The notes under the pieces were generated by a model. It made no database searches, was not told the DNA's origin, and was given only the letters and a program-made list of their open reading frames with translations. From Eledone cirrhosa (Eukaryota): DNA of 64,000 bases. Numbering within the stretch: position 1 is the stretch's first letter; every line of letters starts with the position of its first letter. The DNA lies in assembly GCA_964016885.1 (NCBI GenBank), contig OZ024744.1:93310001-93374000 (forward strand), given 5' to 3'. The position numbers and the translations under genes were made by a program. Shown here piece by piece: positions 22,588-64,000 of this stretch.

Positions 22588-23273
<686 letters not shown>

Positions 23274-27716: not shown

Positions 27717-27966
27717 ATGAATGTAATCTCGAAGTGTGTACTGCCACTCTAAATTCTGTAATGAATGTTGACCCACAATATTTGCATATGTATCGGTATG
27801 TCTCTCGGCTGAAAAGGAGGTCATATAACTGTCCATTCATTAATAAATTGCTCCGAAGAATCCAAACCTCGGTTTGGAGGAAACAGCTGTAAGCACAATA
27901 ATGTTTTGAACAGTTCTTTGATTCTTATATTTCATATATTTCATATATATATGTATATATGTATGT

Positions 27967-30652: not shown

Positions 30653-30952
30653 ATAATAATAATTGTTTCTACTTTTGGCACAAGGCCAGCAATTATCCCA
30701 GTGCATTACTGGTACTTTATTTTATTGACCCCGTAATGATGAAAGGCAAAGCTAAACCTCGACAGAATTTAAACTTAGATCGTAAAGGAATGTAACTATA
30801 TGCCAAAAAGCATGTTGTCCAACGCTCTACCGATACCGCTGCCAATCCATGGCCACAAAAGCAGTAATGAATAACGGTTTCTGATTTGAAACCAGATCAT
30901 AAAAGGCTATAACTCTATGGTGTTGAATTTTCTTAATTTTTTATTACTGTAA

Positions 30953-38913: not shown

Positions 38914-40865
38914 ATGGAACCCAATAGAACAGTAGTGAATTTCCTGGACACCACCCTCAACCTCAACACCAAGCTACACCACCCATATCATAAACCCAAT
39001 GAGAAGCTGGTGTATATCAATGCTGGGTCCAATCACCCTAGATCTATAGTTAAGGCCGTAGTTAAGAGTGTCTCTGACAGGATCTCTAACTTGTCGGCTA
39101 ATAAAGAGATCTTCAATAGTAACGCTGATTACTATAACTCAGCGCTAGCTAAGGCGTCCCACAGCCATACAATCAGCTATAACCCTAAGGAACATGATCG
39201 AGATGACCCAAGGGTGGGTACCCCGGACCAATGCCCTCAGGGGCCTGAGTCACCCACCTAATACCTTGGTGACCAGTAGTAACACTCCCAGACCCATATC
39301 CGTCACCACCCCCGGTAGAAGGTCCTGCATACCCCACTGGTCTAATACCTACAACACTGAAGACCACTGTGGAGCATAGGCACCCCTGCACCGGCCCCAC
39401 CACCTGCCGAACCCTAATTGAGCAGGGAGGCCGCACCTCGCAGGTTTATAGCCCCATGGTGGGCCCATATAACCCTCATGATAGTGACTGCTCCGCACAC
39501 CTGAGTGACACCAACCGAGCTCGACCTGAGCTGTGCACAACCCCGCGATGGCCCGCGGCGGACACCCAACAACCCCACAAGAATAGGACCAGGAAGGTCA
39601 CATGGTATAACCCCCCCGTACTCGGTGGGTCTACATACCAGCCTGGCTAGAACATTCTTTAGAGTACTGGATAAATGTTTCCCTAGGGCCCACAAGTACC
39701 ATAAAATATTCAACAGGCACATGGTGAAACTTTCCTACTCAACCACACGCTCTGTAGCCCAGCACATAGCTGGCATAAATAGGAATAGGCTCACTGCCTC
39801 TAATACCACCGTTAACCCCGGAGCCACCCAACAGAACCAGCACGCAGGACGCAACGGAACCCGGTCAGGCCCAACTAGCACCACGGAACCCAACAACCCT
39901 GTGCTGATTGCGGAGGCTACCCAGCCAACCCCGAGTGATGGTAACCACGCGGTACATGTGGTGGGGCTTAAGAAGTCATGTAATTGGAGAGACCCATCCC
40001 TATGCCCTCTTAGTAACGAATGCATGACGAAAAACGTAGTCTACAGGTGCAAGGTCACAACCCCTAACTTGGAGCACCACTACATAGGATCCACAGTAAC
40101 GAGCTTCAAAGCTCGGCGGTATAACCATCGCCATTCCTTTAACAGAATAGATAGGAGGAAATGTACGGCCCTTTCTGAATTGATCTGGAAGCTCAAACTT
40201 GAAAAAGACCCCGCACTCTCTGGTCTGGTCCGTGGTTAGAAAGGTTCCCCCAGACAGAGGCGGGTCTGGTATTTGCAACCTCTGTCTTAGTGAGACACTC
40301 GAGATTCTTCATGGCGGAACCAAGCTATTAAACAGAAGGGCCGACTTATTCGGTGCCTGCAGACACCTAAGGACGGGAACTTTCCTCAAGCTATATGGAT
40401 AAACCCCGGTTACGGCCTCCCACAACCCCCCCCCCCCCTGTAGGTCCCCTACACCCCGTACCAAAGACCAATGGACAACAACAACCACCCATAGTTTGTG
40501 GTCCCTATGGTGGATGGTCCTCCGGATCCTCTACTGGTTAGGAGTCATTTAAACAACGTTTTATTGAACCTGATTTTATATATATATATATATATATCAT
40601 GTGTATGTATATATGTATATATTTTATGTAAGTGTGTTATTTTATGTATATATATATATTTTATATATAAGTTTTAATATAGATGAGATTCTACAGGACT
40701 AGAACTGTTTCATTCTTTAGACATCATCAGGAGATTCCTGATGATTTCTAAAGAATGAAACAGTTCTAGTCCTGTAGAATCTCATCTATATTAAAACTTT
40801 TATACTCTGCTATGTATTGAGTACCTTACTTACTGTGGTTACCTCCGATTCAACCCGGAATAACG
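38914..40865 (+). mobile_element. 5'-truncated, frameshifted Penelope-like element (Naiad-like) with 3' pLTR
   Basis: NFLD.TLNL...PY.KPN...SNHP, WYNPP, KIFNR..KLSYS, CPL...C...NVVY.C...YIG (GIY-YIG), C.LCLSE...LLN.R....CRH; flanked by (TA)n. Confidence 0.92.
40731..40783 (+). ncRNA. Type I hammerhead ribozyme in PLE 3' repeat
   Basis: GAGATTC-CTGATGA-TTTCTAAAGAAT-GAAA-CAG(TTCTAGTC)CTG-TA-GAATCTC; 7-bp stem I. Confidence 0.8.
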
Positions 40866-40918
40866 TATATTTTATATATATATATTTTATATATATATGT
40901 ATGTTCTGTGTATATATA

Positions 40919-41809: not shown

Positions 41810-41937
41810 TAGGAGGTGAGTTTTATTGTAGTACAATAAAGCAATGCAGATATCGGATAAGAAGCACTCTACAGTTTGTAGGACTGGAGTATACATAATA
41901 TATAAGATCAAAAGATGGTTAAATGAGTTCCATGTAT

Positions 41938-42008
41938 TATTTTATTATGCGCATTTCAAAAACAAATATTATCATGCAATAACATTTGTGTTTTCATCAG
42001 ATAAAATA
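41938..42008 (-). ncRNA. Type I hammerhead ribozyme (mirror copy in palindrome)
   Basis: Reverse complement of 42127-42197. Confidence 0.8.
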
Positions 42009-42126
42009 GGAAGACATGATATGAAGGTTAAAACACTTGTGGATAGTGCAGTTTTAAATCAACATATCATGTTGATTTAAAACTGCACTATCCACAAGTG
42101 TTTTTAACCTTCATATCATGTCTTCC

Positions 42127-42197
42127 TATTTTATCTGATGAAAACACAAATGTTATTGCATGATAATATTTGTTTTTGAAATGCGCATAATAAAATA
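42127..42197 (+). ncRNA. Type I hammerhead ribozyme
   Basis: TATTTTAT-CTGATGA-long stem II-GAAA-TGCGCA-TA-ATAAAATA; 8-bp stem I, palindromic stem III. Confidence 0.82.
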
Positions 42198-42230
42198 ATA
42201 CATGGAACTCATTTAACCATCTTTTGATCT

Positions 42231-42287
<57 letters not shown>

Positions 42288-42459
42288 AATATAATATGTT
42301 GAGAAGGTAACACACCAGAGAGAGATATATAGTGCGTTATCAATAATACAGGGAAAAAACCACCAGTGTATGGAATCTATAACCTATGAAAGGCAGACTA
42401 TAGACACGATAATTAAAAATATAAATTAAAGCGTAAATAAATACCTCTATAACTATATA

Positions 42460-42540
42460 ACACACGTACAAATCCAAAGATATGTTTCACCAGAAAAATT
42501 GTTGAAAGAAATGGTCTGGTCTCGGTTCATCAGCGTGTGT
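42460..42540 (-). ncRNA. Type I hammerhead ribozyme
   Basis: ACACACG-CTGATGA-ACC...GGT-GAAA-CATATC(TTTG)GATTTG-TA-CGTGTGT. Confidence 0.8.
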
Positions 42541-42854
42541 AAGGCCATACATTTCAGACAACACTAAGAGAATTTTACAATTGACTGTCCAGCTACACGT
42601 GGGAGAGAGAAGTCACAGCGTGTTTAAGGGCAGTGAACCAGTGGCCTCTGGGAGACGAACTGCTAGAAAGGGCAGCCCAAAGCCACTCAGAGAAGAGTGC
42701 TCAACCAAACAGAGATAGGAAAGGCTGTTGTTAGGAGCGAAATATCACGATAAATTAACGGAGGCATAGGCCGTCGTTATTCCCTGTAAATAATGTGCTC
42801 AAAGGGGAAGAGATCCTGAGCCCTTTAGAATATAATATGTTGAAATGTAGAAAT

Positions 42855-43390: not shown

Positions 43391-45570
43391 CAAGGAAGAA
43401 TTAACTCCTGTACCTAACTGGTACTTTATTTATTGTCCTCCTCAAAATGACGAAAGCCAAAGTTAACCTTGGCAGGATTTGAACTCAGATTGCAGAAAAC
43501 TGGAATGATTGCTGTGAAATATTCTATCCAACTTTCTAATGACTGTGTCAGTTCCTCACCTACTCTATTATAGAACTCAATTGAATGTTATTACAAGTTT
43601 AATAAGTCCTTTACAAAAAAAAAAAAAAAAAAAAAATTAATCCCTTCAGTATATTCACAAGTGATCTCCCCTTAACTTAAAAAGAATTGGGGGAGGAAAA
43701 ACATTTCTTTTTTTCTCCTCCAAGATGTTCAGTGTGCGAAATAGGAAAAAAATGAACTTCCTTTTGTGACCAAACCACATCTTTTAGTTTAAGATGGTAA
43801 AATATTTATCTGTGTCTGGCTTCAGTTACACAAATATTTTGTGTTTCTTAAAAACAATTGTTTCTACTTTTGGCACAAGGCCAGAAATTAGCCAGTGCAT
43901 TACTGGTACTTTATTTTATCGACCCCCGTAAGGATGAAAGGCAAAGTTAACCTCGGCGGGATTTGAACTCAGAATGGCAAGAGCCATAACTCTATGCATC
44001 AAAGCATGGTGTCTGACCCTCTACCGATACTGTCAATCCACCGCCCTAAAATACTAGTAACATGGATTGCCAAATTGCCAAGGGTTATATATTTATAACA
44101 ATTGGCGAATTGGAAGAGTTGTTAGAATGGCAGATAGAATGTTTTGCAGTATTTGTTTTGGCTTTCTACTCTCTGAGTTCCAACTCTGCTCTGGTTGACT
44201 TTGGCTTTCATTCATTCAAGGTCGATAAAGAAAAGTACCAGTCCAGTACTGGGATTGATTCTGTCTCTGTATCTCTTTTATTTCCATTCACTTACTCACT
44301 ATCCTCTGGAAGAAATCTGCTGTATTCAGATCTGGAGAGGAGATGGGCTCCACCAGGTTTAGAAAATGCCCTAGAAATTCCCTCATATATTTGTAACACA
44401 ACATTAATTGGGTATGAATTGTAATTACAAAAGAGTGAACCCTTGATATGTTAAGATTACTTAAAATACATGTCAACTAAGCATATGTTTTCATTGGTAC
44501 TCAGACGAGTCATAGGTGCCTAATGAAAGCATATACTTAGTTACTATGTATTTTAAGTAATAATGCCAACACAAGAGCAAGAATGAAGGGTTCATTCTAA
44601 TGACAAGGCTTATAAAAGAGAGTGTTTGCATAATTGTGAATCGAATATCATTATTAATATTTGAAAACTCAGATTATGTTTATTGTATTCAACCATGTAG
44701 GCGATAACTATTTGTTAGTTATATATATATATATATGTATAAATATATATATATAGTGAAAAAAAGTGTGGACATTAGAAAGTGTTCTGTACAGATCACG
44801 TTATATAAGGAAAAAGATTTTTAAAAAGTGTTTGAAAGATGTACAAAAATTCATTGACAAAAAACAGTTTAACCTAATAACAAATGTTTTGATATTCCAA
44901 AACAGAGAAAGCAGGCTTTCTTAACATCAATTTTTGTACATGTTATAAAGATCCTTTTTATATATATACCAGGGTATGCTTTCCAAACCCTTTTCTTTTA
45001 TATATATATATATATATATATACGTCCCACCCTTGCAAGCAGGGAAAAAGCGGACGTAAAATGAAATGATGATGATGATATATATATATATATGTGTTAA
45101 TTCAAGTGAAAAACCAAAGGTGATACTTCAAATCAATTTTATGAAGTGTAGAGGTTAATAAAACGATTTGAAGTATCCACATCTAAAATTATTATGCTCT
45201 GTATTTTTGTCCATAAGCAATTAATACATTGAGCTTTCTTGCATTTGGAAAAGAATGAGTGATATTCCCACTCCTAGTCTCCTATTCATCTTTTATTTAT
45301 ATACACAATAGAGTTCTTGTCCTTTCAGCAGCTAGTTCCAGACCAGCTCCAGTCTGCAACTAGCAGTTGAAAGGGCAAGAGCTCATCTGTCAGGCCCCCA
45401 CTCTTTCTAATATAGTCATACTCTACTATCCCACGTATCAAGTACTCTGTTGAGTATTGGTCTAACTAGTTTAAAACTGGTTCTATCCTGATATATATTT
45501 ATATATATATATATCGTTTCTGAATTTGTTTAGCAAGATTCTTTATCTGAAAACGTGTGTTGAAACCGAT

Positions 45571-47104
45571 ATTGTTATACTTTGGGAGGGTTATGTTGCC
45601 AATAAGAAACACCCCCACTAGAGAACAGTCAGGAATTAGAGAAAAACACAATGGAAAGCATCCAGCAAATAGCTAACCCCATCCACCAGAGTATTAGAGT
45701 TACTATAGACTACCCCAGCAAACACCCCAACCATCGATTACCTGTACTAGACACAGAGCTCTGGTTAGATACCATTAATAACAAAAAACAAATCCTCCAT
45801 TCCCATTATGCCAAACTCATGACTTCCAAATATCTGATCCACCGAAACTCAGCTGTTTCGGACCATACCAAAATCAACATACTGATTGCGGATTTGGTAC
45901 GGGTGATGAGAAACGTGTCCCGCATGTGCAACCCCAAAGAACTAGAGAGACACATACAACACTTCATCCACCGTATGCAGTTTTCTGGTTACAATCAGAG
46001 AGATAAAATCAGAGTATATAGAGGAGCCAGAACCAAATGGGAAAAAATGGTAAATAATGACACAAATTTGACCTGCCCCTTGTATAGGAGAAAATTTTGG
46101 AATAGAGTAGAAAGAACTAGGAATAAGGCTAATAGAATAAACTCATGGTATGATAACAATAAATACCAGAGTGTAATGTTCATCGATACAACCCCTAGAG
46201 GTGAATTAGCTTACAAATTTAGAAGGGCACTAGATAAACATAAACTCAATATTAAGATAGTAGAAAGACCAGGTACCTCCATAAAAAACACTTTTTAGCA
46301 ATACATACCCTTTTCAAAGACCTCCCTGTATAGATAAGAAATGTATAATCTGTAAATTAAGCCCCCATATTAACTGTAAAACTAGAAATGTAGTATATAG
46401 CATAAGATGTACTGAAGGACAATGTAGAGATAAAAATATAGTGTACATAGGTAAGACAGCTCGTAGTATAGGGGAACGGATAAATGAACACTGGCGAGAC
46501 CTTCAAGATAGTAAAGAATCATCTGTACTCTACCATCATGCTAAAATAGAACATAAGGGTAAATTAGAGAACATAGAAATAAAAATAGAATCTACACACA
46601 GAAAAGACGCAATGTTTAGACAAATCACAGAGGCAATAAACATAAATGAACTCCAACCAAAATTAAATAGAAAACATGAATGGAACAGCAACATCACAAC
46701 TTACAATTAAGGACAAAATGAAAACACACACGCATATAGAACAAACAACCAACCAGTAACATGCAAATAAACAAATAAATAAACGAATATAAACACACAC
46801 GGACACCCGGATGTAACACATACGCAAACTAAGCACACAACACACACAAAAACAAGTTGGCGTAGGACAGAACAAAGGAGAGGCACAAAAACAAAGAAAA
46901 GAATCCCCAGTCACTGAAGAGGTCACAGAATGTGTGACGAAAGAACTTTGACAATATATAAACAATCATCTGGTAGTGGAACCAACCAACCAACTGGAAA
47001 TTTATAAATTCCTAAATTTATAAATTTATTATAATAAATTGAAATGAAAGCAACTGGTGCGTGTATTTCTTATTGGCAACATGACCCTCCCAAAGTATAA
47101 CAAT
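45571..47104 (+). mobile_element. 5'-truncated Penelope-like element (different type from the Naiad-like copies) with inverted terminal repeat
   Basis: IDYPS...LPVLD, SGY, C...NVVYSIRC...YIGKTARSIGERINEH (GIY-YIG), P.LN; ATTGTTATACTTTGGGAGGG...AATAAGAAA at 45571 is inverted at 47068-47104. Confidence 0.9.
46910..46952 (+). ncRNA. Hammerhead motif in PLE 3' UTR
   Basis: GTCA-CTGAAGA-G-GTCACA(GAATG)TGTGAC-GAAA-GAAC-TT-TGAC. Confidence 0.6.

Positions 47105-48581: not shown

Positions 48582-48586
<5 letters not shown>
48116..48586 (-). mobile_element. RTE LINE (second subfamily) 3' end
   Basis: MKDDSCIKRCRAL.V.G..GVGRP..TW; tail shared with the CORE-SINE. Confidence 0.8.
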
Positions 48587-48651
<65 letters not shown>

Positions 48652-48659
48652 TATATATT

Positions 48660-49318
48660 ATTTTCCCATTAATTTCTCTATTTTCATTTATATATTTAAA
48701 CTCAGAATTTTTCCTTGAGTGCTTAAAATTATTTGTGACTAATCCCGTTTTTTTTTTTTTAAACTGCGATAATATTGCTTCATGCTGAACTCCGTATTTT
48801 TTGTTGAGTTTTTTTGGAATGTTTTGACTGCTGTTTCTTGTAAACAGACTCTTGTCTCATTCCGGCATCACTAGCCGATCACCACGTGTGTTTTTATTAT
48901 TTCAATTCCACACGATGTTTGACTTGCCTGCTTTTAAATTCCCTTCTGGCATATTTTAGCAGTGTGAATTAGTTAACGTGTTGAGCACTACTGATGAACG
49001 GTTCCAACCGTGACTAACCCCACTGAAAAGTTTCGTGAAATAGTCTTTTTAAGACTATATAGTGCATTTGTAGATTTTCCCAAATTGACGGATAAGTATT
49101 TTTTCTTGATTTTATTTTGAGTTAAGATTCTATTAGTTTTTTCCCCAGATTACACAAAGTCTGAGGATAACATTTTTCTTCTTGACTTGTTTTGAATTAA
49201 GATTATTTTCCCATATCTTATGTTAAATATTTTTCATCTTGATGTTATAGTCACTTATATGTCTGAATTACTGTCGGCTTCTTGCTTACATTAATTTCTC
49301 TATTTTCATTTATATATA
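48660..49318 (+). mobile_element. ORF-less hammerhead-bearing element in (TA)n (solo pLTR or retrozyme-like)
   Basis: Direct terminal repeat CATTAATTTCTCTATTTTCATTTATAT at both ends; homologous to 60004-60570. Confidence 0.7.
48985..49065 (+). ncRNA. Type I hammerhead ribozyme
   Basis: GCACTA-CTGATGA-ACG...CGT-GAAA-TAGTCTT(TTT)AAGACTA-TA-TAGTGC. Confidence 0.88.
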
Positions 49319-49328
49319 TATATATAAA

Positions 49329-49605
49329 GTCTAAAGTCTGTCTTAAGCCAGAAGGCTCATTTGGTCAGTGCTTATCCCAATTTCATGGCGTGAAGCAACT
49401 GAGAGTACAGCATTCCCCCCTGGACAGGACGCCAGTCTATCGCAGGTTTAAACTCCCAGCTATTATTGATACTCATTTCCAGCTGAGTATACTGGAGCAT
49501 TGTGAAATGAAGTGTTTTGCTGAAGAACATAACACACAACCCAGGAATCAAACCCACAACATTATGATAAGTCCAACACTCTAACCACTGGGCCACGTGC
49601 CTCCA
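49329..49605 (-). mobile_element. tRNA-derived Nin/Deu-domain SINE
   Basis: Head TGGCCCAGTGGTTAGAG and CCCCCCTGGACAGGACGCCAGTCTATCGCAGG domain. Confidence 0.7.
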
Positions 49606-49630
49606 CTATATATATATATATATATATATA

Positions 49631-50230
49631 TCATCATCATCATCATCATCATCATCGTTTAACGTCCGTGTTCCATGCTTGCATGGGTTTGGACGGAGGG
49701 TTTTCCCACTTGAGGCAAGAGGGGTTATCTTGCTCGCATAGTACTATCTGGCGGGTTTTCTACAGCTGGATGCCCTTCCTAACACCAGCCACATTTACAG
49801 TGTGGGGCTGGGAGGTTTTTACCGTGTTGTCTACACGGCCACATTACAGCGTGAACTGTGTGTTTTTTTGTCGTGACACCTACACGATCTCATTTGTTTC
49901 GGCCTGGATGTTGTGGCACCAACATAACTTTACATTGAAAGGGGCGGTGTGGATGGGGTGGAGGTGGTGGGACGGGGGTGTGTTTTGATAGAGATGCCTA
50001 CTGACTGTAGTAGGTTTTTACTTTGTATTTAGGTAAGGCGGGTCTTCTCTATTACTGAGTACCGCCAAAGGTCTCGGTCCAGTGACATTGTCTTGGTGAG
50101 GTGTAAGTGTGTGAGGTCGGAATTTATTAGCTCGTCCCAGGTTTTTCTGGGTCTGCCTATTCCGTGGCTACCGTCTATCTTTATTGCCCTGCACTTTGTT
50201 ATACAGCTATCGTCCTTCATGCGCATCATG
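49631..50230 (-). mobile_element. RTE LINE 3' end in (TA)n
   Basis: MRMKDDSCITKCRAIKIDG...EKTRLT; 3' UTR; (GAT)n tail. Confidence 0.92.
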
Positions 50231-50622
50231 TGTATATATATATATATATATACATGTACACACACAAACACACATATATATATATATGTATGTATATATA
50301 TATGTGTATATATATATGTATATATATATATAAAGAATGAATAATAACAGGTAGACATCATAAAAAGGTAGTTTATTCCGTGTGCTTACAAGTGTTTCCA
50401 CGGTGGTGCTGCAGCCTAGTTCCGCTACGTGCATATATATATATACACACACACACACATATATATATATCCAGGGAGTGTAACTTGGAGTTACTGTAGG
50501 TTCACCTGGGTGAGCACTCGATGTTTAGGTTCACTTCAGTGTCGAGGTGTAGAGCTAGACAGTGTATTATATTGAAAAGATAACAAGGAAGATTGGTTAC
50601 TCCTTCATTACATTTATTGGTT

Positions 50623-50706
50623 GGTGACGCGCGTTTCGACACTGATCAGTTCAAGGTTTGATCTGTATCAATCTGACCCGACTGTATCAATCTGTATCGT
50701 CAGACC
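50623..50706 (-). ncRNA. Type I hammerhead ribozyme with palindromic stem III
   Basis: GGT-CTGACGA-long stem II-GAAA-CGCGCG-TC-ACC. Confidence 0.75.
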
Positions 50707-50940
50707 CCTTGTAATGGTAATGGATCAGATCGATACAGATCGAACCTTGAGCTGATCAGTGTCGAAACGCGCGTCACCAACCAATAAACGTAATGAAGGA
50801 GTAACCAATCGTCCTTGTTATCTTTTCAATATAATACACTGTCTAGCTCTACACCTCGACACTGAAGTGAACCTAAACATCGAGTGCTCACCCAGGTGAA
50901 CCTACAGTAACTCCAAGTTACACTCCCTGGATATATATAT

Positions 50941-51990
50941 AGAAAAGATAAATATAAAATGAAAGTGCTTTTTTTTAAAAAGGAATTTATTAGGTATTGA
51001 CATATGTTTCTGTAACAGACGGAATACCTATGTATCGCTGCTTGCGTAATCATATAATGTTAACAAGTATTCGATAGCAAATGTATAATCAGTTGTCACT
51101 TCTTCAGTGATATTGGATAAATTGGAAAAAATCAGAAAAATTGAAGTATTTATATTAGTTGCAATAAAGGAAGAAGAGAGGAGATAGTATATGACAGATG
51201 GCAATTCAATTTACTGGTAAACAAGTATATAAAGGGTTTCTAATGAGAATACAATGAGTATATGGTTTATTTTATCTAAATAAGAATTTTTGGGAGTGCC
51301 TATTTTAATCTATACTTGACCAATTGAACAATGGACAGGGCTGGTCGTTTGGTGTAGTAGTATTAATTATAAAGTGTCAATTAAGGAAGAGGGAGATTTT
51401 CGCTGCTACTGAATAACAACAATGTTGGTAGCTTGCTGGTATATGCATTAGGGAATTGAATTAAGAAATCTCATTTTATCTATAGCAGTTTATATTAAAT
51501 GGTAAAGAATAGAAAAGTTGATAGAATTAAGACTAATAGAGAATGTTAATATGTATTTTGGCAATCAAATGGAGATGGAGACAGGCGTTCAATCCTGGTA
51601 GTGTTTGTAATATGAAAATGTAAATTTTTAGCGATGGTTACAGTATAACGATCGCTCTATTCTGTTATTTAATAAAATATTTTTGGATTTCATAATACAA
51701 AATAATTCCATATTACACAATTTACAAAATTCTTGTCCGTGGGATAATGGAGGGGCACACTATTATATCCCATTTTAGGTTAAATTGTTGGTTATTTTCG
51801 CGCAGCTGCCAAGCCTTGTCTGCGAGTGTTGTTACCCTTTATATACTTGTTTACCAGTAAATTGAATTGTTAACATTATATGATTACACAAGCAGCGATA
51901 CATAGGTATTCCGTCTGTTACAGAAACATGTCAATACCTAATAAATTCCTTTTAAAAAAAAAGCACTTTCATTTTATATTCATCTTTTCT
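50941..51990 (-). mobile_element. Severely truncated Naiad-like PLE with inverted 5' pLTR copy
   Basis: About 51830-51625 reads TTLADKAWQLRENNQQFNLKWDII / CKLCNMELFCI...LLNNR....CNHR; 50941-51066 is inverted at 51868-51990. Confidence 0.8.
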
Positions 51991-52092
51991 ACATTTTCTC
52001 CGGAATATAATTTATACTCGTTGAGCAAACCTACACGTACGCTGTTCATCTCTAACGTGACGATATATTATCACTACATTATTGATAACCTG

Positions 52093-52139
<47 letters not shown>

Positions 52140-52152
52140 TTGTTATCTTATT

Positions 52153-52194
<42 letters not shown>

Positions 52195-52801
52195 CATATA
52201 TATATTAAAAGCACTCACTGTAGGTTGAATGTAGAGTTTATATATATATATAACAAAGGAGGTGTGGTAAGGAACCAGATAGACCATAATGCACCAGAGT
52301 ACTCAATACTTAGGGTAGTAGATTGGGTAATAGGAAAATGTTTAACCCCGACGGCAGAGCTCAAACGTCGGGGTTAAACATTTTCCTATATATATATATA
52401 CATTCAACGTACAGTGAGTGCTTTTAATTTTGAGATATAAAAGGAAATTCAGTGTGACCTTTTCAATTACTAGTACACTCCATGTTGTATTTTAGTGTAT
52501 GTGGCTGAGTATTTCCTATATATATGTATCCTTAATGTAATTCTCAGAAATTTGGCATAACACACTGCGTGGCAAGGCTGGCGCTTTCATTTACAGACAT
52601 AGTCCACCCTCAAGATATGGGTCCACTGACAAGATATGGGTATATATGGTAAATGACACTTGTCTAAGATGCCACACAATGGGATTGAACCAGAGATTTA
52701 TTGATTGCAAAGTTAACTTCATAACCATTTAGCTATGCTGTGTCTATTAAGCCACCAACCCAGACTTTCGAAATAACCACTTTGTCATGATGTCGACTTA
52801 C

Positions 52802-52867
52802 CTCAAAGTTTTTCAAAATCTCCCTTAATTCTCCAGATTCATTTAAAACTTCTAGGGTTTCTGCCGT
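52802..52867 (-). CDS. GRXCR1: Penultimate 66-bp coding exon of the GRXCR1-like gene
   Basis: tttttCAG acceptor, TAETLEVLNESGELREILKNFE, GTAAGT donor. Phase 0/0 joins in frame to the 36407 exon, and the NESGEL motif is typical of GRXCR. The upstream glutaredoxin exon was not found in the window. Confidence 0.9.
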
Positions 52868-52950
52868 CTGAAAAATATTGGACAAATATAAAGGAACATG
52901 TTATAAATAATGTTTTATATTCTTTCTGGGTTTTTTTTTTTCAATAACTC

Positions 52951-53550
52951 AAAGGGTTGAGAAGACCCTTCACTTGTGTCAAGGACATGACAATCTTCCT
53001 AGTGTTGGTGATCTACATGGTAAAAGCACCCAGTATACACATACACTGTAAATTGGTTGATGATAGAAAGGGCATCCAGCCATAGAAAGCTTGCCAAAGG
53101 GTTGGAAGGACCCTTTAGTTATGCCCAAGACATAACAATCTCCTTAATATTGGTGATCTACATGATAAAAGCACCCAGTACATGCTATAAAGGGGTTGGT
53201 GTTAGGAAGGGTATCCAGCTGTAGAAAGCATGCCTAACAAAAGGTTGGGCGGACCCTTCAGTTGTGTTAAAGACATGACAATCGCCCTAGTGTTAGTGAT
53301 CTACATGGTAAAAGCACCCAGTACATGCTGTAAATTGGTTGAGGATAGGAAGGGCATCCAGCCATAGAAAGATTGCCAAACAAAGGGTTGGAAGGATCCT
53401 TCAGTTATGTCAAAGACGTGATAACCTCTCTAGTGCTGGTGATCTAGATCATAAATAACACACAGTACATATTGTAGTCTGGTTGGTAATAGGAAAAGCA
53501 TCTAACTGTCAATGTGGTTGGCTTTAGGAAGGGCATCCAGCCGAAGAAAA
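52951..53550 (+). repeat. Four tandem units (about 145 bp) derived from the RTE/SINE tail
   Basis: AAAGGGTTGGAAGGACCCTT...AAAAGCACCCAGTA...GGAAGGGCATCCAGC repeated. Confidence 0.8.
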
Positions 53551-53589
53551 CCAGCTAAAGTTTGGAAGAAACAATTGTCAGCGATTAAA

Positions 53590-55266
53590 TGTCTTGCTCA
53601 TATATGACTGATTCTGACTTGATTTCTACAGCTGGATGACCTTCCTAACACCAACCTCATTTATAGTGAGTGCTGGGTGCCTTTTTTCCGTCGTGCCTAC
53701 ACGTCCACTTTACAGTGTGGGCTGGGTGCTTTTTTGCGTGGCACCTCCACGACCACTTTGCAGTGGGTGGGGTGGGGGGATATTGTCTATATGCTTTAGC
53801 TTCGGCTTGTACCCATGGGAAGTCGGGTCTTCTGTATTACTGTGTGATGCCAGAGGTCGTGTGTCATCGCCTTTGAGAGGTGCAATTGGTTAAGGTCGGC
53901 TTTTATTACCTCATCCCAGGTCTTCTTGGGTCTCCCCACTCCGTGGCTTCCATCGACTTCTAGTGCTCTGCACCTTTTTATGCAGCTGTCATCCTTCATA
54001 CGCATCATATGTCCATACTAATGCAACCACCTCTCCTGCACACAGCATTTGATTCCTCTTATGCTCAGTCTCTCTCTCAATTCGTTTATGCTTTGCCATT
54101 CACGTATATTACTATTACACATCCATCGGAGCATGCAGGCTTTGTTTCTTTCCAATCTACGCAAGTCTTCTATAGACAGCGCCCAGGTCTCACTACCATG
54201 TAACATTGCTATTCGTATACACGTATAATACAGTCTGCCTTTCATTTTGAGGGAAAAGCCTTTTGTAGCTAGCAGTGGCAGTAGCTCCCTGAACTTCTTC
54301 CATCCCATTCTTACCCTAGTTATTGTACTTTCTGAACACCCACCTCCGCTGCTAATTCAGTCACCTAGGTAGCAGAAGCTGTCTACTGTTTCTACAGAGC
54401 CCTCCCACAGTTTGGTGGTACCTGTTTCCTGTGGCTGTTTGCTGCTTGCTGTCCCAGTGCTGCTGCTACATATGAAGCCTACATTCTTAATTAAGCTTCC
54501 TGAGATCCCACTACATCTCTTGTGTACCCATTGTTTGCATTTGGGGCAGAGGATGAAGTTCCTACCTACACCTTTCCTACATACTGAGCAAGGCCACTTC
54601 CCTGAGGGGATCTGGGTTCTGTTTTCTCGTCTACTTACGAGGACCTTAGTCTTTGTCAGGTTGACTTTGAGACCCTTTCTTTCTAGTCCCTGCTTCCATA
54701 TTTGGAATTTCTTTTCTAGTTCTACCATAGATTCAGCTATAAGTGTGAGGTCATCTGCATACAGGAGTTCCCATGGGCATCCGGTCTTAAACTCCGCCGT
54801 TATTGCCTGCAGGACTATGATGAACAGGAGGGGGCTAAGAACAGAACCCTGGTGGACACCGACCTGTATGCTAAATTCCTCACTAGTGTCATTGCTAATC
54901 CTAACTTTGCTGACTGCTCCCCTATACAAGGCTTGTACAGCTTTCACAAGCCATTCATCTACTCCTAGTTTTCTAAGAGCCCACCAGATTATAGCACGGG
55001 GACTCTGTTGAAGGCTTTTTCCAGATCGACAAATGCAGCTTACTTTTAACTAGGTACTTTTCCGGTAAATGCCTCACACGGAAGAGGGCATCAGTGGTGC
55101 CTTTTCCTGGCACAAACCCAAATTGCATCTCATCTAGTTTTACTCGATCCCTAATCAACTGTGCTATAACTCTTTCTCTTACTTTCATGACCTGGTTCAT
55201 CAGCTTTATACCTCTATAGTTTCCTCTATCTAGTGCATCACCTTTACCCTTGTGCTGCTGCACCAA
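53590..55266 (-). mobile_element. Decayed RTE LINE (second subfamily)
   Basis: KGKGD....NYRGI, QFGF, QGSVLSP, YADD, PHD-like insert; frameshifts. Confidence 0.93.
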
Positions 55267-55267
55267 T

Positions 55268-55329
<62 letters not shown>

Positions 55330-55335
<6 letters not shown>

Positions 55336-55760
55336 ATACTTGGGGAGGGTCATATTGTTATAATATTGCCACAAATAATAACAGAATGCACTCACTGCTT
55401 GGTTTGGTTTGGTTTGGGTTGGTTTTCGCTTCTGTATCTTTTATATCTCCATATTTAATTTTTCTGCCAATCAATGTTTATCATTGATTCACCAACGGTT
55501 AAAAATACAGATATAAATATATATATATAGTCTATCAAAGTTCTTTTGTCACACATCTGTGACATCATCAGTGGTACTATTATGTTTCCTCCCGTTGTAT
55601 TGTAATGCCTTACCATTGGTCAATCAATGATAAACATTGATTGCCAGATAAATTAACTATGGAGATATAAAAGATACAGAAGCGAAAACCAACCCAAACC
55701 AAACAGCGAATGTGTTCTGTTATTATTTCTGGCAATATGACACTCCCCAAATGTAACAAT
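55330..55760. mobile_element. Fold-back PLE pLTR remnant in (TA)n
   Basis: Arms about 55330-55500 and 55612-55760 are inverted; termini match the 45.6-kb PLE end; HHR in the loop. Confidence 0.7.
55534..55575 (-). ncRNA. Degenerate hammerhead motif (46.9-kb family)
   Basis: ACCA-CTGATGA-T-GTCACA(GATG)TGTGAC-AAAA-GAAC-TT-TGAT; GAAA is mutated to AAAA. Confidence 0.5.
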
Positions 55761-56530
55761 ATATATATATATATGTCTATATGTGTGTACATAGATAGGG
55801 AGTTACCAATTTAGATTAGTAAGACCATTGTTTAGCTTAGTACTTGATACATATATGCATATAAACCAACATACATATTGCTATGTAGGTTAGAATTGGC
55901 TTTCTTTAGGCAATTTTTACTTGTATTCCCTCCCACAGTGTGATTTTGGCTTAAATTTAATATTTTTGTATATATATTCCACTGCAAAGTGGTCGTGGTA
56001 GTGCCACGGCAAAAAAGCACCCAGCCCACACTGTAAAGTGGACATGTAGGCGCCATGGAAAAAAAGCACCCAGCACTCACTGTAAATGAGGTTGGTGTTA
56101 GGAAGGGCATCCAGCTGTAGAAATCAAGCCAGAATCAGTTCCCGTCCCACCCTTGCAAGCATGGAAAAGCGTACGTAAAAAAAAATAGGATGATATATTT
56201 AATTTAAAATCTTAATTAAATGGATACAAATCAGACAAATTAAAATAAGTCAGTTTCACTCATGTAATGTCTCTAACTGCAGTTTCTGGAATTAAGAAAC
56301 AATACTAATTATCCCAATAAATTAAGATGATCAATATTGGAAGAATTATTCTGTCTTCAGGAGTAAATGTAATTAAAGAAAATATTGAATTGATAGCATA
56401 CAAACTATGTCATTAAATAGTTAATGTAGTTTCAGACTATATATGGTTATGGGGGTCTATCTCCAAAACCATAGGAGTAGTTCGTGAACAAACAAACAAA
56501 CAGACAGGAATACAACTTTATATATATATA

Positions 56531-56882
56531 TGGAGGCACATGGCTTAGTGGTTAGAGCATTGGCCTTGCAATCGAAAGGTTGTGAGTTCAATTCTCAGAC
56601 TGGGTGATGTGTTGTTTCCTTGAGCAAGACACTTTATTTCACATTGCTCCAGTTTACTCAGCTGTAGAAATGAGATGATAGGGACTGGGGTCCCTATCAT
56701 TCCACTGCAAAGTGGTCGTGGAGGTGCCACGGCAAAAAAGCACCCAGCACTCACTGTAAATGAGGTTGGTGTTAGGAAGGGCATCCAGCTGTAGAAATCA
56801 AGCCAGAATCAGTTCCCGTCCTACCCTTGCAAGCAGGGAAAAAGCGGACGTAAAATGAAATGATGATGATGATGATGATGAT
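56531..56882 (+). mobile_element. Full-length CORE-SINE with RTE tail in (TA)n
   Basis: As 22933. Confidence 0.9.
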
Positions 56883-57409
56883 ATATATATATATATAAAG
56901 TTGTATTCCTGTTTGTTTGTTTGTTTGTTTGTTCATGAACTGCTCCTATGGTTTTGAAGATAGACCCCCATAACCATATATAGTCTGAAACTACATTCAC
57001 TATTTAATGACATAGTTTGTATGCTACAGGGTACTTGGATAAGTATATTTCATCTTAATCAAAGGGTTCCTTGGGGGCACAAAACCTTGTTGAAAATGTT
57101 TTCCCTTCGATTTATACATAATTTAAATCATAGGTAAATGACAAGATACGATGCCTATTCATAAAAGTTTTGAATTGATATTTTGAAAAAAAATTATTTA
57201 CAAGAAACAAAATAAGAATAAGATTTAATAATGTAATTTTGATTTGATATATTACAGAAATTAATGTTTTTCCAATTATTCATGCATTACATTTTAAATT
57301 GAGTAATATTGAAATGCAGAGTTTTTCTCCATAAATTAAATCACTGATTTAAAATCAATCATCATTTCTTACAAAGAAAATGTGTGAATTCGGGTAGTAT
57401 ATATATATA

Positions 57410-59605
57410 TCATCATCATCATCATCATCGTTTAACGTCCATATTCCACGCTCGCTTGGGTTTGGACGGGAGTTTTCCCACTTGAGGCAAGAGTGGTTGT
57501 CTTGCTCGCATAGGACTGTCTGGCAGGTTTTCTACAGCTGGATGCCCTTCCTAACACCAACCACATTTACAGTGTGGAACTGGGAGGTTTTTACCTTGTT
57601 ACCTACACGGCCACATTACAGCGTGGACTGTGTGTTTTTTGTCGTGACACCTACACGACCTCATTTGTTTCGGGCTGGATGTTGTGGTACCAACATAACT
57701 TTACATTGAAAGGGGCGGTGTGGATGGGGTGGGGGTGGTGGGACGGGGTGTATTTTGTTAGAGATGCCTACTGACTGTAGTAGGTTTCACTTTGTACTTA
57801 GGTAAGGCGGATCTTCTCTATTACTGCGTAGTGCCAAAGATCTTGGTCCAGTGACATTGTCTTGGAGAGGTGTAAGTGTGTGAGGTCGGAATTTATCAAG
57901 TCATCCCAGGTTTTTCTGGGTCTGCCTACTCCGTGGCTACTGTCTATTTTTATTGCCCTGCACTTTTTTATACAGCTGTCCTCTTTCATGCGCATCACGT
58001 GACCATACCAATGTAGTCTTCTCTCGAGTAAACAGCATCTGATCCCTCTTATTTCTAATTTCTCCCTTAGTTCGTTTATGCTTTGCCGTTCACGTATATT
58101 ACTATTACACGTCCAGCGGAGCATGCAAGCTTTGTGTCTCTCCAGTCTGCGTATATCTTCTGCACGCAATGCCCAGGTCTCACTGCCATGTAACATTGCT
58201 GTTCGTATGCAGGCATCATACAGCCTGCCTTTCATTTTTAGAGAGAACCCTTTAGCAGCCAATAGTGGTATAAGCTCTCTGAACTTTTTCCATGCCGTTC
58301 TGACTCTAGCTACTGTACTTTCAGAGCACCCTTCCCCACTGCTGATTTTGTCACCCAGGTAACGGAAGCTGTCCACTATTTCTATAGAACCATTTGTGCA
58401 ATGGAATGAGTTAGTATTCTGTGGGCACTTGCTGCTACTTATTGCACCAGAGCACCGGCCACATATAAAATCTATATTCTTAGTTAGCTTACCTGTGATC
58501 CCACTACATCTTTTATGCACCCATACTTTGCATTTGGGACATAAAATGGAGTTTCTACCTACTCCTTTCCTACACAATGAGCATGGCCATTTCCCAGATG
58601 GAACCGGTGCCCTATTTTCCTTCCTACAAACTAGAACTTTAGTCTTAGACAAGTTAACTTTAAGGCCTTTTGATTCTAGGCCATGCTTCCATGTTTGGAA
58701 TTTCTTCTTTAGTTCAGCCCTTGATTCAGCTATGAGCGTTAGATCATCTGCATATAGGAGTTCCCATGGGCAGCCGGTCTTGAACTCCTCTGTTATAGCC
58801 TGAAGGGCAATAATAAATAGTAGGGGGCTAAGGACGGAGCCCTGATGAACACCAACTTTTACGCTAAACTCTTCACTATATTCGTTGTTAATTCTAACCT
58901 TGCTGACTGTTTCTTTATACATGGCTTGTATAGCTCTCACAAGCCATTCATCAACACCTAGTTTTCTAAGGGCCCACCAGATAATGGAGCGGGGTACTCT
59001 GTCAAAGGCTTTCTCCAAGTCAACAAAAGCTAAGTATAGGGGTTTACTTTTAGCTAGGTACTTCTCCTGTAGTTGTCGTACAATGAAAATAGTGTCTGTT
59101 GTACTTTTACCTGACACAAACCCGAACTGCATTTCATCTAGTTTCACCTCGCTCTATGATTAGTTGCGCATTTACTTTTTCTGTGACAATCATGACCTGG
59201 TCAATTAATTTAATAGTTTCCCCTATCTAGGGTATCACCTTTACCCTTGTAGCAGTTAATGATGATGCTGCTGCGCCAGTCCTTCGGAATGACCCCAGTC
59301 CTTCGGAACAACCCCATTCTGTATGACTTGGTTTACTATCCGGGTGACCATAGTGTGTCCCACCGTTCCAGATACTTTCAGAATTTCGGCAACTATTTCC
59401 GAAGGCCCGGCCGCCTTGCCCATTTTCATGTCTTTGATCGCCTTACTTATTATACTACCTTCAACTTGCACTGCTGGTCCCTCTATTGGGTCGATGTGGG
59501 GGAGACTGTCTTTCTCCCAATTATTCTCCTCATTTAGTAGCCTTTTGTAGTGACACTTCCAAGCTACCTTCTTATCAGCGTCAGTGATGGCAAGTACACC
59601 ATCAT
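57410..59605 (-). mobile_element. RTE LINE, longest copy (linker plus RT, frameshifted 5' part)
   Basis: AIKDMKMGKAAGPSEIVAE, then a 449-aa RT ORF with YADD. Confidence 0.96.
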
Positions 59606-59644
59606 CATTAAGTACACACTTATATATATATTTATATATATATA

Positions 59645-59925
59645 TTGTTATACTTGGGGAGGGTCATATTTGTGTAATATTGCCAGAATTAATAACAGAA
59701 CACACTCACTGTTTGGTTGGTTTTCGCTTCTCGCTGTCTTTTATATCGGTAATCTAACTTACTCGGTCCTCAATGTTGCCATTGACTGACCGACGGTCAA
59801 AAATAATACAGATACAATATAGACACAAACACATATATATAGTTTATCATAAATCTTTCGTGAGTGTGTTCTGTTATTAATTCTGGCAATATTACACAAA
59901 TATGACCCTCCCCAAGTATAACAAT
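59645..59925. mobile_element. Fold-back PLE pLTR remnant
   Basis: About 65-bp inverted termini ATTGTTATACTTGGGGAGGGTCATATTTG...CACACTCAC; only the 3' half of an HHR is present at the inversion junction. Confidence 0.7.
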
Positions 59926-59968
59926 ATTTGTTTCGACACACGATTTCATATAAAAAAACCTCGCAAAA

Positions 59969-60003
<35 letters not shown>

Positions 60004-60008
<5 letters not shown>

Positions 60009-60570
60009 TGTGATAATTATTGCTATTTTGCTGAACTCCTTTGTAGAGTTTTTTTCAGAATGTATTTGACTGCTATTTCTTGTAAATAAACATTCACTTC
60101 CATCCTGACGTCACTAGCCCCGTTTTTTCCTCATGTGCTTTTTCATAAATACACATGAAGGCGAACTAGCCAGTTTTAGAATTCCCTTTTTCGGATTATA
60201 TTACTGTGAGAGCCCTGGTTTTCTGTTGAGCTCTGCTGATGATTGAAATTCCAACCGTGACCATCTCCACTGAAAGTTTTCATGAAATAGTCTTTTAAGA
60301 CTATACAGAGCATTTGATGTTATTCCAAATTGAAGGATAAGTGTTTCAAACTTTATTTTATCATGAGTTAAAGGTCTATAGATTTTTCCCTGGATTTTAC
60401 TAAATTCTGTGGATGAATTTATATCCTGATTCTCTTTTGAGATGAGTTTGAGTTATTTTTCCTAAATCTTTCGTTAACTACTTTTCCCATCTTGACGTTA
60501 TAGTCGCATATATGTTATAGAATGCTGTTAGCTTCTTGCTAAAACAATCTCTATACCTCTCATTTATATA
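60004..60570 (+). mobile_element. ORF-less hammerhead-bearing element in (TA)n
   Basis: Colinear, diverged homolog of 48760-49318. Confidence 0.7.
60230..60311 (+). ncRNA. Type I hammerhead ribozyme
   Basis: GCTCTG-CTGATGA-TTGAAA...TTTCAT-GAAA-TAGTCTT(TT)AAGACTA-TA-CAGAGC. Confidence 0.86.
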
Positions 60571-60695
60571 TAAATATATATATATATATATTTATATATG
60601 AGGGCGGCTGGCTGTGAAGCTAGTTAGTCAGCCACTCTCTCTGTCTCTGGTTTCTCGGACCCATGGTTTTTTACATATTCCTTTGTTATATTCCA

Positions 60696-60753: not shown

Positions 60754-60820
60754 AATAAACCTTTCAAGGATTTACACCAGTCCAGCCTCCTGTTATTTCA
60801 TTTATATTTATATATATATA

Positions 60821-61161
60821 TGGAGGCACATGGCTAAGTGGTTAGAGCATTGGCCTTGCAATCGAAAGGTTGTGAGTTCAATTCTCAGACCGGGTGATGT
60901 GTTGTTTCCTTGAGCAAGACACTTTATTCCACATTGCTCCAGTTTACTCAGCTGTAGAAATGAGATGATAGGGACTGGGGTCCCTATCATTCCACTGCAA
61001 AGTGGTCGTGGAGATGCCACGGCAAAAAATCACCCAGCACTCACTGTAAATGAGGTTGGTGTTAGGAAGGGCATCCAGCTGTAGAAATCAAGCCAGAATC
61101 AGTTCCCGTCCCACCCTTGCAAGCAGGGAAAAAGCGGACGTAAAATGAAATGATGATGATG

Positions 61162-62060: not shown

Positions 62061-64000
62061 TGGCAACCTATATCAAGTGGAGTGCAGTACTTACCATCAA
62101 CTACGACATAATGCTGTAACTAAGGATTACCGTAAAACTAATCGGAGCGTCATCACTGAAATCAACGATGCTGGGTTTAAAATCACCTCTGATCTCAACA
62201 TCCTGGACCGGACCGAACCTCTGGACCCTATTTCTCCCCACTTTACCCTGAAGGATCACAAATCCAATTTTCCAAACAACCCCTCTATTCGGCTTATTAA
62301 CCCACGAAGTCCGATTTAGGTAGACTTAGTAAAAGGATTCTTGATAGAATTATACCTGAAATTAGAAGTTTGGCACCTCTTGCACTGTGGAACAATTCTT
62401 TCGCGGTGATTGATTGGTTCAACGGCATATGTAACAAGGAACATTGCCGTTTTATCCAATTCGACATCAACAATTACTACTCCTCCATCACTTTACCACT
62501 TCTCCTTAGAGCTATCAATTTCGCTAAAACACTCACAGTGGTTAAGGATTTCGAAGTTGATGTCATCCTCAATGCCCGTAAGTCGGTGATTAATTTCGAC
62601 GACTCTATTTAGATTAAAAAATCCAATAGTACCCCATTCGACGTGAGTATGGGCGCCAGCGATTCTGCGGAGGTTACTGATCTTATCGGCCTTTTCCTTC
62701 TTTTCTCTATCAAGAACGAATTCCCCAACGCGGGCGGTGGTTTGTACCATGATGATGCTCTTTTGACCATGACTAAGTGCGGACCTCGTGCTTGCGACAG
62801 GTTCAGAAAAGAACTACAGCCTTCTTTAAAGGCTTCAACCTCTCTATACAGGTTGAGGCCAACCTCTCGGTTGTTAATTACCTCGACGTTACCCTCAATT
62901 TATCGAATGGGTTGTATTACCCGTATAGAAAGCCGAATGATACGCTTAATTACATAAGTAAGCATTCCAACCATCCTGCCAGCATAACCAAGAACCTGGT
63001 AAGAAACGTTTCGTTGAGGCTTTCCCGTCTATCTACTAACGACCATATTTTCAACGACCATTCCACTTATTACAATGAAGCTCTTGCTCGGAGTGGATTT
63101 GTCGATAAGGTAGCATATTCAGAGTACGAAAATAGACCTAGAAGAAATAGATCCCATCGCATTTGTTGGTATAACCCACCATATAATATGGAGGTGGCCA
63201 CACCATTAGCTAAGATCTTTCTTTCCCTTATTACGAAGCATTTTCCACCTACACATAAATATAGTAAAATTTTTAATAGAAATACCATTAAAATTTCTTA
63301 CTCTACGACTCCTAACCTTGCACATAACATCACAGCTTCTAATTTAACTAAACTACCTAGCCGTAGGAACACGTGCAACCCTGTAGTTAGTACTAACTGT
63401 AATTGTAGGAATCGGGTTGACTGCCCCCTATCCGGGAAATGCCTCTCTAGTAACATTGTCTACAAATGTGAGGTTGAAACACCCACGTCCCATAGGGCCT
63501 ACATAGGGTTAACCGCCAATAGATTCAAGCAGCGTCTTTACATGCATACCCATTCTTTTCGTTACCCTCTAAGAAGGAATATGACGTCACTTTCAGCTTA
63601 TATCTGGAATCTACACACCCAATATAAGTTACACTGGGAGATCCTAGCTAGGGCTAGATCATATAATGGAAATAAAAGACCATGTGACCTCTGCGCCGCT
63701 GAGGCCCTGGAAATACTCTACGCCACAGACCACATCTTAAACAAAAATCTGAGGCAATTTCGGTTTGTAAACATAAATTGCACAAAACTTTCCTGTATTA
63801 CAGCCCCACGTTATCCCCTAACGGATAGTACGATCTATACGTGGAGATTTTACGTCTTGATGTGGTAGCTAAGTATATGTTATGTTTATACCATTACTTA
63901 TTTGCATAGGTAAGTATATATTACCTGTATGTTTTGTGAAGGTACGTATACTTTCTCGTACGTATATTTGATTGTATATGTTATGGCGGATAATTTTATA
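62055..64000 (+). mobile_element. Frameshifted Naiad-like Penelope element (RT plus GIY-YIG), running off the window end
   Basis: TLKDHK.NF...P..RLINP, FDINNYYSSI, MGASDSAEVTDLIG, LYHDD, WYNPPY, CNCR....CPL.GKC....IVY...YIG. Confidence 0.94.

Follow-up and report, generated by a model that had tools for sequence, protein, structure and literature searches.

How a sequence with no coding capacity of its own comes to be copied thousands of times is the question raised by two hammerhead-bearing elements, E1 (48660-49318) and E2 (60004-60570), in a 64-kb window of Eledone cirrhosa contig OZ024744.1 (positions 93,310,001 to 93,374,000), part of a 3.0-Gb genome rich in (TA)n tracts and tRNA-derived repeats. 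We read their family as an animal retrozyme that lacks both an open reading frame (ORF) and long terminal repeats (LTRs), likely copied round an RNA circle by a Penelope-type reverse transcriptase (RT), and we put the probability of this reading at roughly 0.7. E1, at 1.05 units, and E2, at 0.9 units, are insertions of the kind made by endonuclease-containing (EN+) Penelope-like elements. They are read as such because the family has the marks described for these elements: a constant 3' end with 5' ends that vary, partial tandems, inversions and insertion into (TA)n.

E1 and E2 are colinear and 72% identical over 587 nt (E 1e-64), with E2 lacking about the first 64 nt of the unit. A preliminary description of the window had proposed two diverged, colinear, ORF-less homologs, and both points hold: when five subfamily units are treated as circular and both strands are translated, the longest frame free of stops spans 64-94 codons, or 37-66 counted from Met. 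The 27-bp direct terminal repeat that it assigned to E1 is also present, except that it is exact over 29 bp, about 7 nt of which are TATATAT. The unit measures 622-633 nt at 32-33% GC and occurs in at least five subfamilies with identity down to 69%; that of E2 is young (copies 98-100% identical) and that of E1 older (85-94%). Across the genome, the hammerhead pattern has 894 + 869 = 1,763 exact matches (reversed control, 0), the fixed 3' end followed by (TA)n occurs at 1638 + 1654 = 3,292 sites (control, 0), and exact head-to-tail junctions number 229 + 212 = 441 under a pattern that fits chiefly the young subfamily. Two DNA searches returned 2,931 and 2,340 first-look candidates, with 40 of each being scored.

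The insertions themselves record how they were made. We sampled 90 of the 100 3' ends that come first in the genome-ordered list, 30 of them with 1.5 kb of upstream sequence and 60 with at least 3 kb. Copies are not circularly permuted at random, since one fixed 3' end is common to all and only the 5' end varies. Lengths range from 39 to 3,634 nt, with 77 insertions shorter than one unit and 45 shorter than 140 nt; 5' ends often lie at AT microhomologies, 23 insertions beginning in an internal TATAT tract 59-63 nt from the 3' end, and the 5' flank is TA in 67. Thirteen insertions exceed one unit, and four pass the cleavage site twice. The terminal repeat of E1, previously attributed to reverse transcription just past one round, is thus the shortest case of a past-one-round continuum. 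One inverted-plus-direct pair was found (L101/L230). The 12-nt piece at the 5' junction of E1 is likely a short template jump, and a similar piece of 54 nt stands at the head of array L091. Altogether, the fixed 3' end, 5' truncation, partial tandems and microsatellite target are those of Penelope-type insertion: PMC8557442 describes partial tandems, 5' inversions and (TA)n targets for EN+ Penelope-like elements, and the in vitro work in PMC11167929 reports internal RT initiation and cleavage of AT-rich DNA by one such element.

The position of the ribozyme within these insertions constrains the template. The cleavage site lies 262 nt from the 3' end, and 35 of the 90 insertions are longer than that. 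A linear monomer cut at both hammerheads was considered as the template and rejected: its complementary DNA could be no longer than 262 nt and 5' ends would accumulate at the site, but the insertions show neither. In the young subfamily, TA-flanked 5' ends (minus strand, one per locus) do not pile up there. By hand count, the 30 nt up to the site contain 41 of them, a figure to which the anchor may add an extra subfamily, the following 30 nt contain 9 and a control window 13; in 3 of the first 28 listed loci the 5' end is exactly at the site. Because insertions pass 262 nt and 5' ends are not piled at the site, the template was continuous across it. In the 90-insertion sample, 5' ends seemed to gather 10-42 nt downstream of the site (10 at 220-252 nt, none at 138-219), but this did not replicate genome-wide (9 vs 41 and 13) and was dropped. 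In 48 insertions holding a partial and a full unit, 23 of 78 variants private to the full unit are common to both, compared with 23 of 4,990 at other loci. Such common private variants fit one molecule read more than once, and they also fit a transcript of a homogeneous array.

The copies are tandem, in agreement with the retrozyme-like family that had been suggested. Head-to-tail arrays reach 12 full units and open with a 5'-truncated one, the unit end is joined to the unit start in 5/5 sampled subfamilies, and the tandem repeats contain at least two complete hammerheads, one of type I per non-coding unit, as is usual for non-LTR retrozymes. Whole arrays can carry common private changes (L099, L100, L102 and L110); both full units of L110, for example, have lost a stretch of about 30 nt, and the three units of L102 show 0 substitutions among them and 0.8% to the nearest array. 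In arrays L097, L098, L099 and L100 two unit types alternate (A/B periodicity), and therefore the long arrays are partly products of DNA-level duplication. It might be proposed that the whole family is a minisatellite derived from a single pseudo-LTR (pLTR) and spread mainly via unequal crossing-over, as a 2026 preprint (bioRxiv 10.64898/2026.07.22.740005) suggests for tandem growth, and the A/B patterns are what it would predict. We consider this highly improbable: the insertions are dispersed by the thousand in TA targets and agree in their 3' end while their 5' ends vary, most are below one unit, and in young arrays L092-L096 the changes are mostly private to single units.

Several observations on the units are recorded here for completeness. 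A longer unit, suggested by a 1.4-kb spacing at L103, was discarded as a tandem duplication including flanking DNA. Contigs of runs X1, X2 and X4 cover the unit and its end-to-start join, possibly represent source material and cannot show RNA; runs X5 and X6, from other organisms, gave one or two short, low-depth contigs and are not used as evidence of range. In L007 and L022, a short element ending GCCTAAAGTAGAAACAATTA is inserted at the same spot near the unit 3' end.

Both elements carry a type I hammerhead of one layout: a CUGANGA and GAAA core, an open 6-bp stem I, a 4-bp stem II under a 31-33 nt loop 2, and a 6-bp stem III beside an AUA triplet as the UH cleavage site. In E1, stem I pairs GCACTA (48985-48990) with TAGTGC (49060-49065), CTGATGA occupies 48991-48997 and GAAA 49037-49040, stem III is A-TAGTC/GACTA-T and the triplet ends at 49059; in E2, GCTCTG (60230-60235) pairs with CAGAGC (60306-60311) and CTGATGA occupies 60236-60242. 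The preliminary description had reported two covarying stem I pairs and a retained core and stem III, and we recover all of these, with both sides of the two pairs changed. Its unusually long stem II proved to be the 4-bp stem capped by the long loop. A third compensatory pair lies in stem II, being C-G in E1-type and U-A in E2-type copies, and E2 itself has U.U at the first stem II pair, a mismatch that characterizes the youngest sub-branch. The long loop 2 is likely the reason why Rfam gave no hammerhead match to E1 or E2 at the gathering score or at E<=5. Compared with shuffles, the 91-nt hammerhead region of E1 folds with a z-score of -3.2 and that of E2, more weakly, with -1.7.

To follow the pairing across the family, we aligned 34 diverse copies (44 representatives minus 10, comprising nine unrelated motifs and one truncated copy, minus one mis-registered row, plus E2). 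In this alignment 92.5% of hammerhead pair cells are paired and 29 are changed on both sides, a value reached in 0/500 shuffles, while slid controls are 27-52% paired; two pair-count measures are not exceptional (46/500 and 72/500 shuffles). In a tree of 59 units each of the three compensatory changes marks one clade, and we therefore count them as three events. A candidate loop 1-loop 2 pseudoknot, GUUG/CAAC, is paired in 86% of cases with no covariation, and an inner GUG/CAC helix in 94% with one-sided changes only. In other invertebrate retrozymes a stable helix III lets monomers cleave, according to PMC7761336. The predicted ribozyme is an unusual type I variant, with a long loop 2 and a stable stem III, of a form that Rfam misses.

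Whether these copies have a life cycle of their own depends on their relation to autonomous Penelope-like elements. They had alternatively been viewed as solo pLTRs, that is, truncated 3' ends of such an element, and the abundance of short 3' stubs agrees with that view, as does the match of Xenopus retrozymes to pLTRs stated in bioRxiv 10.64898/2026.07.22.740005. However, 0/30 sampled insertions that span the whole hammerhead continue into an ORF, a figure that comes from 90 of 3,292 3' ends and five protein queries from three local families, a sample size that itself leaves some room for pLTRs. Penelope ORFs upstream of copies at L203, L119 and L191 belong to other elements with their own untranslated region (UTR) and hammerhead, and at L180 the unit lies, after a full round, inside the UTR of a Penelope element that its insertion interrupted. 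No non-TA 5' flank is found repeatedly among the 90 insertions, a profile of 59 full units against all retrieved loci, Penelope loci included, finds family copies only, and unit end is followed by unit start in every subfamily sampled. We thus give the solo pLTR explanation very little credence.

The search for a partner covered the local Penelope-like families. Three autonomous-type ends were compared with the unit and none is significant, the best score being matched by 60/1000 shuffles. That score belongs to a second RT-endonuclease family, with an in-register 3'-end likeness (TTCTT.GCT.AAAC) that 159/593 background windows also equal, and the likeness was rejected; a TA-flanked GIY-YIG family likewise has no significant match to the unit. 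Chimeras with Penelope ends are not enriched (1/90 in the same orientation upstream, 3/90 in the opposite orientation downstream). TA-flanked Penelope-like elements are abundant, with 37,001 first-look candidates from one GIY-YIG query, and the window contains a GIY-YIG ORF as well. A sequence search of the PDB with a local Penelope fragment gave 0 matches, and a promoter scan gave chance levels with a bacterial model not suited to this animal host.

A further possibility is that a non-autonomous Penelope-type element is copied from long, uncleaved multimeric array transcripts, with an inherited hammerhead that cuts rarely or with the aid of protein and with circles either absent or by-products. 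The fixed 3' end, the read-through of the site and the common private variants would all fit a homogeneous multimer template; the anole element of PMC11167929 can dispense with hammerhead cleavage in vitro; and the youngest sub-branch has a U.U at the base of stem II. On the other hand, subfamilies with as little as 69% identity have all retained the core and the three stems, with three compensatory pairs, and a 6-bp stem III would favour cleavage of monomers, judging from PMC4209133 and PMC7761336. The axolotl ribozyme HHR_Amex2 has the same U.U at the base of helix II, yet PMC7229834 reports that weak cleavage persists and circles are formed, and the uniformity of the L102 units, set against their distance to the nearest array, also speaks against a multimer template. 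In our judgement copying from uncleaved multimers is unlikely, though far from negligible.

Several results weigh against the retrozyme reading. The DNA signatures do not separate a circle from an uncleaved multimeric transcript, and the long arrays, as described above, owe part of their length to DNA-level duplication. Several of the common private variants come from lone subfamily representatives, only 11 of 28 informative loci have any, and the nearest-neighbour test is weak, with the insertion's own unit nearest in 20/48 cases and 8 ties. As far as the alignment and tree indicate, hammerhead covariation comes down to those three events; stem III gives no covariation signal because it is nearly invariant, and hammerhead conservation (0.84) is barely above that of the rest of the 3' half (0.69-0.85). 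When five subfamily units are folded as circles, 59-63% of bases pair (z -2.5 to -3.6 vs 25 shuffles each), but only one of the five has the complete hammerhead in its minimum-energy structure; for comparison, the linear unit folds with z -4.9, and among 17 full units both sides are changed in 14 of 109 consensus pairs. Uncleaved RNA was the dominant substrate in vitro for the Anolis element, and hammerhead mutants inserted normally (PMC11167929), while eight of nine predicted Xenopus retrozyme dimers did not cleave, as the 2026 preprint states. Finally, no autonomous partner with matching ends was found among the families compared.

Our reading of the family as a retrozyme copied from a circle predicts the following cycle. 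A tandem locus would be transcribed, and the hammerheads would cut the transcript to monomers, as the intact core, the 6-bp stem III and the three clade-level compensatory pairs suggest; a host ligase would close each monomer, by analogy with published retrozymes. A Penelope-type protein with RT and GIY-YIG endonuclease would then nick a (TA)n tract and start reverse transcription internally, at a short UAUA stretch that lies 262 nt past the cleavage site; of this step, only the fixed 3' end is observed and the enzyme is presumed. The RT would circle the template through the cleavage site and stop variably, leaving the 0.06 to 12 units observed in DNA, and some arrays would later enlarge by DNA-level duplication, as the A/B periodicity indicates. 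The genome directly displays the non-coding unit, the fixed internal start, the read-through of the site, the more-than-unit products, the TA targeting and the later growth of arrays. Transcription, self-cleavage, circular ligation and the use of a Penelope RT and endonuclease are presumed steps.

The family is not the only one of its type in this genome. A second ORF-less hammerhead family, at 42287-42847 on the minus strand, has a unit of about 540 nt with a long loop 2, tandem copies 98-99% identical, 2,701 candidates, a tail of about 90 nt (a second RT start) and 5' inversions. A third (L010 / L243-L272), revealed by a flank, has a unit of about 508 nt, 3,088 candidates, two RT starts, inversions and (TA)n targets, and CTCCGTTAATTT is common to it and the second family. 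No ORF junction was seen in 12 fetched loci of the second family or in 30 of the third. In all three families a bulged hairpin with a CTC...GAG outer stem is predicted a few bases 3' of an RT start, in 25/25, 7/7 and 24/24 junction copies of families 1, 2 and 3, and a closing helix spanning the junction is predicted in 24, 5 and 18 of these, respectively; the 25 copies of family 1 were drawn at random from 53 distinct junctions. The pattern was noticed post hoc, and the rule combining hairpin and closing helix is loose, since 31/300 shuffles meet both (median z -1.8 to -2.6). Family 1 has no significant sequence similarity to the other two, between which there is a weak resemblance (1/300), and the hairpin is not clearly present in two autonomous-type Penelope families examined.

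We tentatively suggest that an RT-start domain shared by at least three families (upstream hairpin, AT-rich start, CTC...GAG hairpin and junction-spanning helix) may serve as a Penelope RT recruitment signal, the insertions then being possible footprints of rolling reverse transcription round circles. It is similarly conceivable, though doubtful, that the domain would form only across the junction, and hence in tandem transcripts, circles or cleaved monomers. The idea merits attention because the 2020 review PMC7761336 reports that animal retrozymes have no conserved motif pointing to a partner.

Features of E1, E2 and their flanks (positions in the window; strand as + or, where none applies, a point)
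Feature	Position	Strand	Note
(TA)n microsatellite, 5' flank and target of E1	48585..48657	.	sequence
12-nt piece, identical to 49203-49214, joined via CAT	48658..48669	+	sequence
5'-truncated upstream copy of unit end and head-to-tail junction	48667..48695	+	29-bp repeat with 49289-49317
E1 full unit, period 622 nt, older subfamily	48696..49317	+	best other copies 85-94% identical
Candidate recognition element: predicted hairpin with a bulge, ACTC...GAGT, immediately 3' of the fixed RT start	48700..48720	+	
Type I hammerhead of E1, predicted cleavage after 49059	48985..49065	+	
Predicted small hairpin, UUCUU loop, ahead of fixed 3' end	49270..49292	+	
Fixed 3' end ...TCATT passing into (TA)n	49311..49326	.	
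(TA)n 5' flank of E2, directly past tail of unrelated Penelope-like element end	59972..60003	.	
E2, 5'-truncated 0.9 unit, youngest subfamily, unit 628-633 nt	60004..60570	+	best copies 98-100% identical
Type I hammerhead of E2, U.U at stem II base, predicted cleavage after 60305	60230..60311	+	
(TA)n after fixed 3' end of E2	60565..60599	.	

The window contains further elements of related kinds. A 5'-truncated Penelope-like element at 45500-47050 (+) encodes the RT C-terminus, a CxxC linker and GIY-YIG and carries a minimal hammerhead; it has an inverted end in (TA)n and a frameshift near 46290, and it is the element with the 37,001 candidates given above. Two other Penelope-like RT/GIY-YIG fragments lie at 62100-64000, continuing into the neighbouring stretch L303, and at 39273-40400; the 1-kb 3' UTR of the former ends in a variant hammerhead, present in three copies, with CAGAAGA replacing CUGANGA. 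Directly upstream of E2, a palindromic terminus plus tail from a related Penelope-like family occupies 59640-59970, and this tail also abuts a unit copy in L203. A short insertion at 40653-40870 is a palindrome with a hammerhead at its centre (CTGATGA at 40738) and has a tail; it has 434 candidates at 99-100% identity, its top copies are all inverted-plus-direct, and no parent was found. A minimal-hammerhead element that is very common, TATTTTAT-CTGATGA...GAAA-TGCGCA-TA-ATAAAATA, occurs as an inverted pair at about 41830-42240, with several variants in many loci. Repeats of other kinds include four minus-strand LINE fragments, at 26643-27836, 29244-30668, 54357-55049 and 57798-59153, in which a PHD finger comes after RVT_1; tRNA-derived SINE copies at 3632-3880, 22935-23179, 56530-56778 and 60820-61068, which are 94-97% alike; and a tandem satellite with an 82-bp period that runs from 8139 to about 13500 in about 64 copies.

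The family belongs to a described class, and the class itself is not new. Our searches of the literature on octopus and cephalopod hammerheads, retrozymes and Penelope elements found no description of it, although supplements and repeat libraries may hold one; neither "octopus" nor "cephalopod" occurs in the main text of PMC7229834. Animal retrozyme mobility has so far only been proposed, either as reverse transcription round a circle by an unnamed RT or as local tandem growth. The present family is young (98-100%), abundant and clean-ended, and therefore records the RT start, the read-through of the ribozyme site and products longer than one unit. The in vitro Penelope assay now available could use it as a defined substrate, and it offers a candidate recognition hairpin that is predicted in two sister families as well.

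The genomic features given for animal non-LTR retrozymes in PMC7229834 are all present: ORF-less, low-GC tandem units with one type I hammerhead each, dispersed in thousands of copies as dimers to multimers, a predicted self-paired circle, co-existing Penelope-like elements and, as in HHR_Amex2, a U.U mismatch at the base of helix II. There is no LTR architecture, as the variable 5' ends indicate, with no separate search for a primer-binding site (PBS) or polypurine tract (PPT). The family differs from those retrozymes, as PMC7229834 presents them, in its longer unit (about 170-400 nt there) and in its 6-bp helix III and 31-33 nt loop 2 (1-2 bp and small loops there); circles and cleavage were demonstrated for them and are predicted for the E1/E2 family. 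It also fits the view of retrozymes as non-autonomous Penelope derivatives put forward by Li, Clavereau and Pollet (bioRxiv 10.64898/2026.07.22.740005), whose hammerhead monomers, dimers and multimers of proposed Penelope origin have consensus lengths of 51-972 bp, a range that spans the size found here. That survey, as far as its text lists them, covers 31 vertebrates, 3 insects and 1 coral, and no mollusc. The preprint ties retrozymes to pLTRs by sequence, whereas the E1/E2 family has no significant match of this kind among the ends compared, and it derives tandems from local expansion, whereas the insertion anatomy here points to reverse transcription past one unit.

With EN+ Penelope-like elements such as Neptune and Naiad (PMC8557442) and Anolis Poseidon (PMC11167929), the family shares partial tandems (which form pLTRs there), 5' truncation, occasional 5' inversion, (TA)n targets, no visible target-site duplication (TSD), an internal RT start and a hammerhead in the repeat. 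Judged by the same papers, it is unlike them in having no ORF, a full three-stem rather than a minimal hammerhead, and no second RT start ("tail") in the copies seen. Chlamys elements such as MRC1, described in PMC8557442, are likewise ORF-less and Penelope-type, with pLTRs and multicopy head-to-tail insertions; they are green algal, mostly lack canonical hammerheads and resemble at the 3' end an autonomous partner, none having been found here among the ends compared. Finally, the LTR retrozymes of plants, as characterized in PMC4918200 and PMC6765202, are also non-autonomous hammerhead retroelements, with units of 600-1000 nt circles, but their hammerheads are type III and they possess LTRs, a PBS and PPT and 4-bp TSDs, in contrast to the type I hammerhead, variable 5' ends and microsatellite targets of the E1/E2 family.

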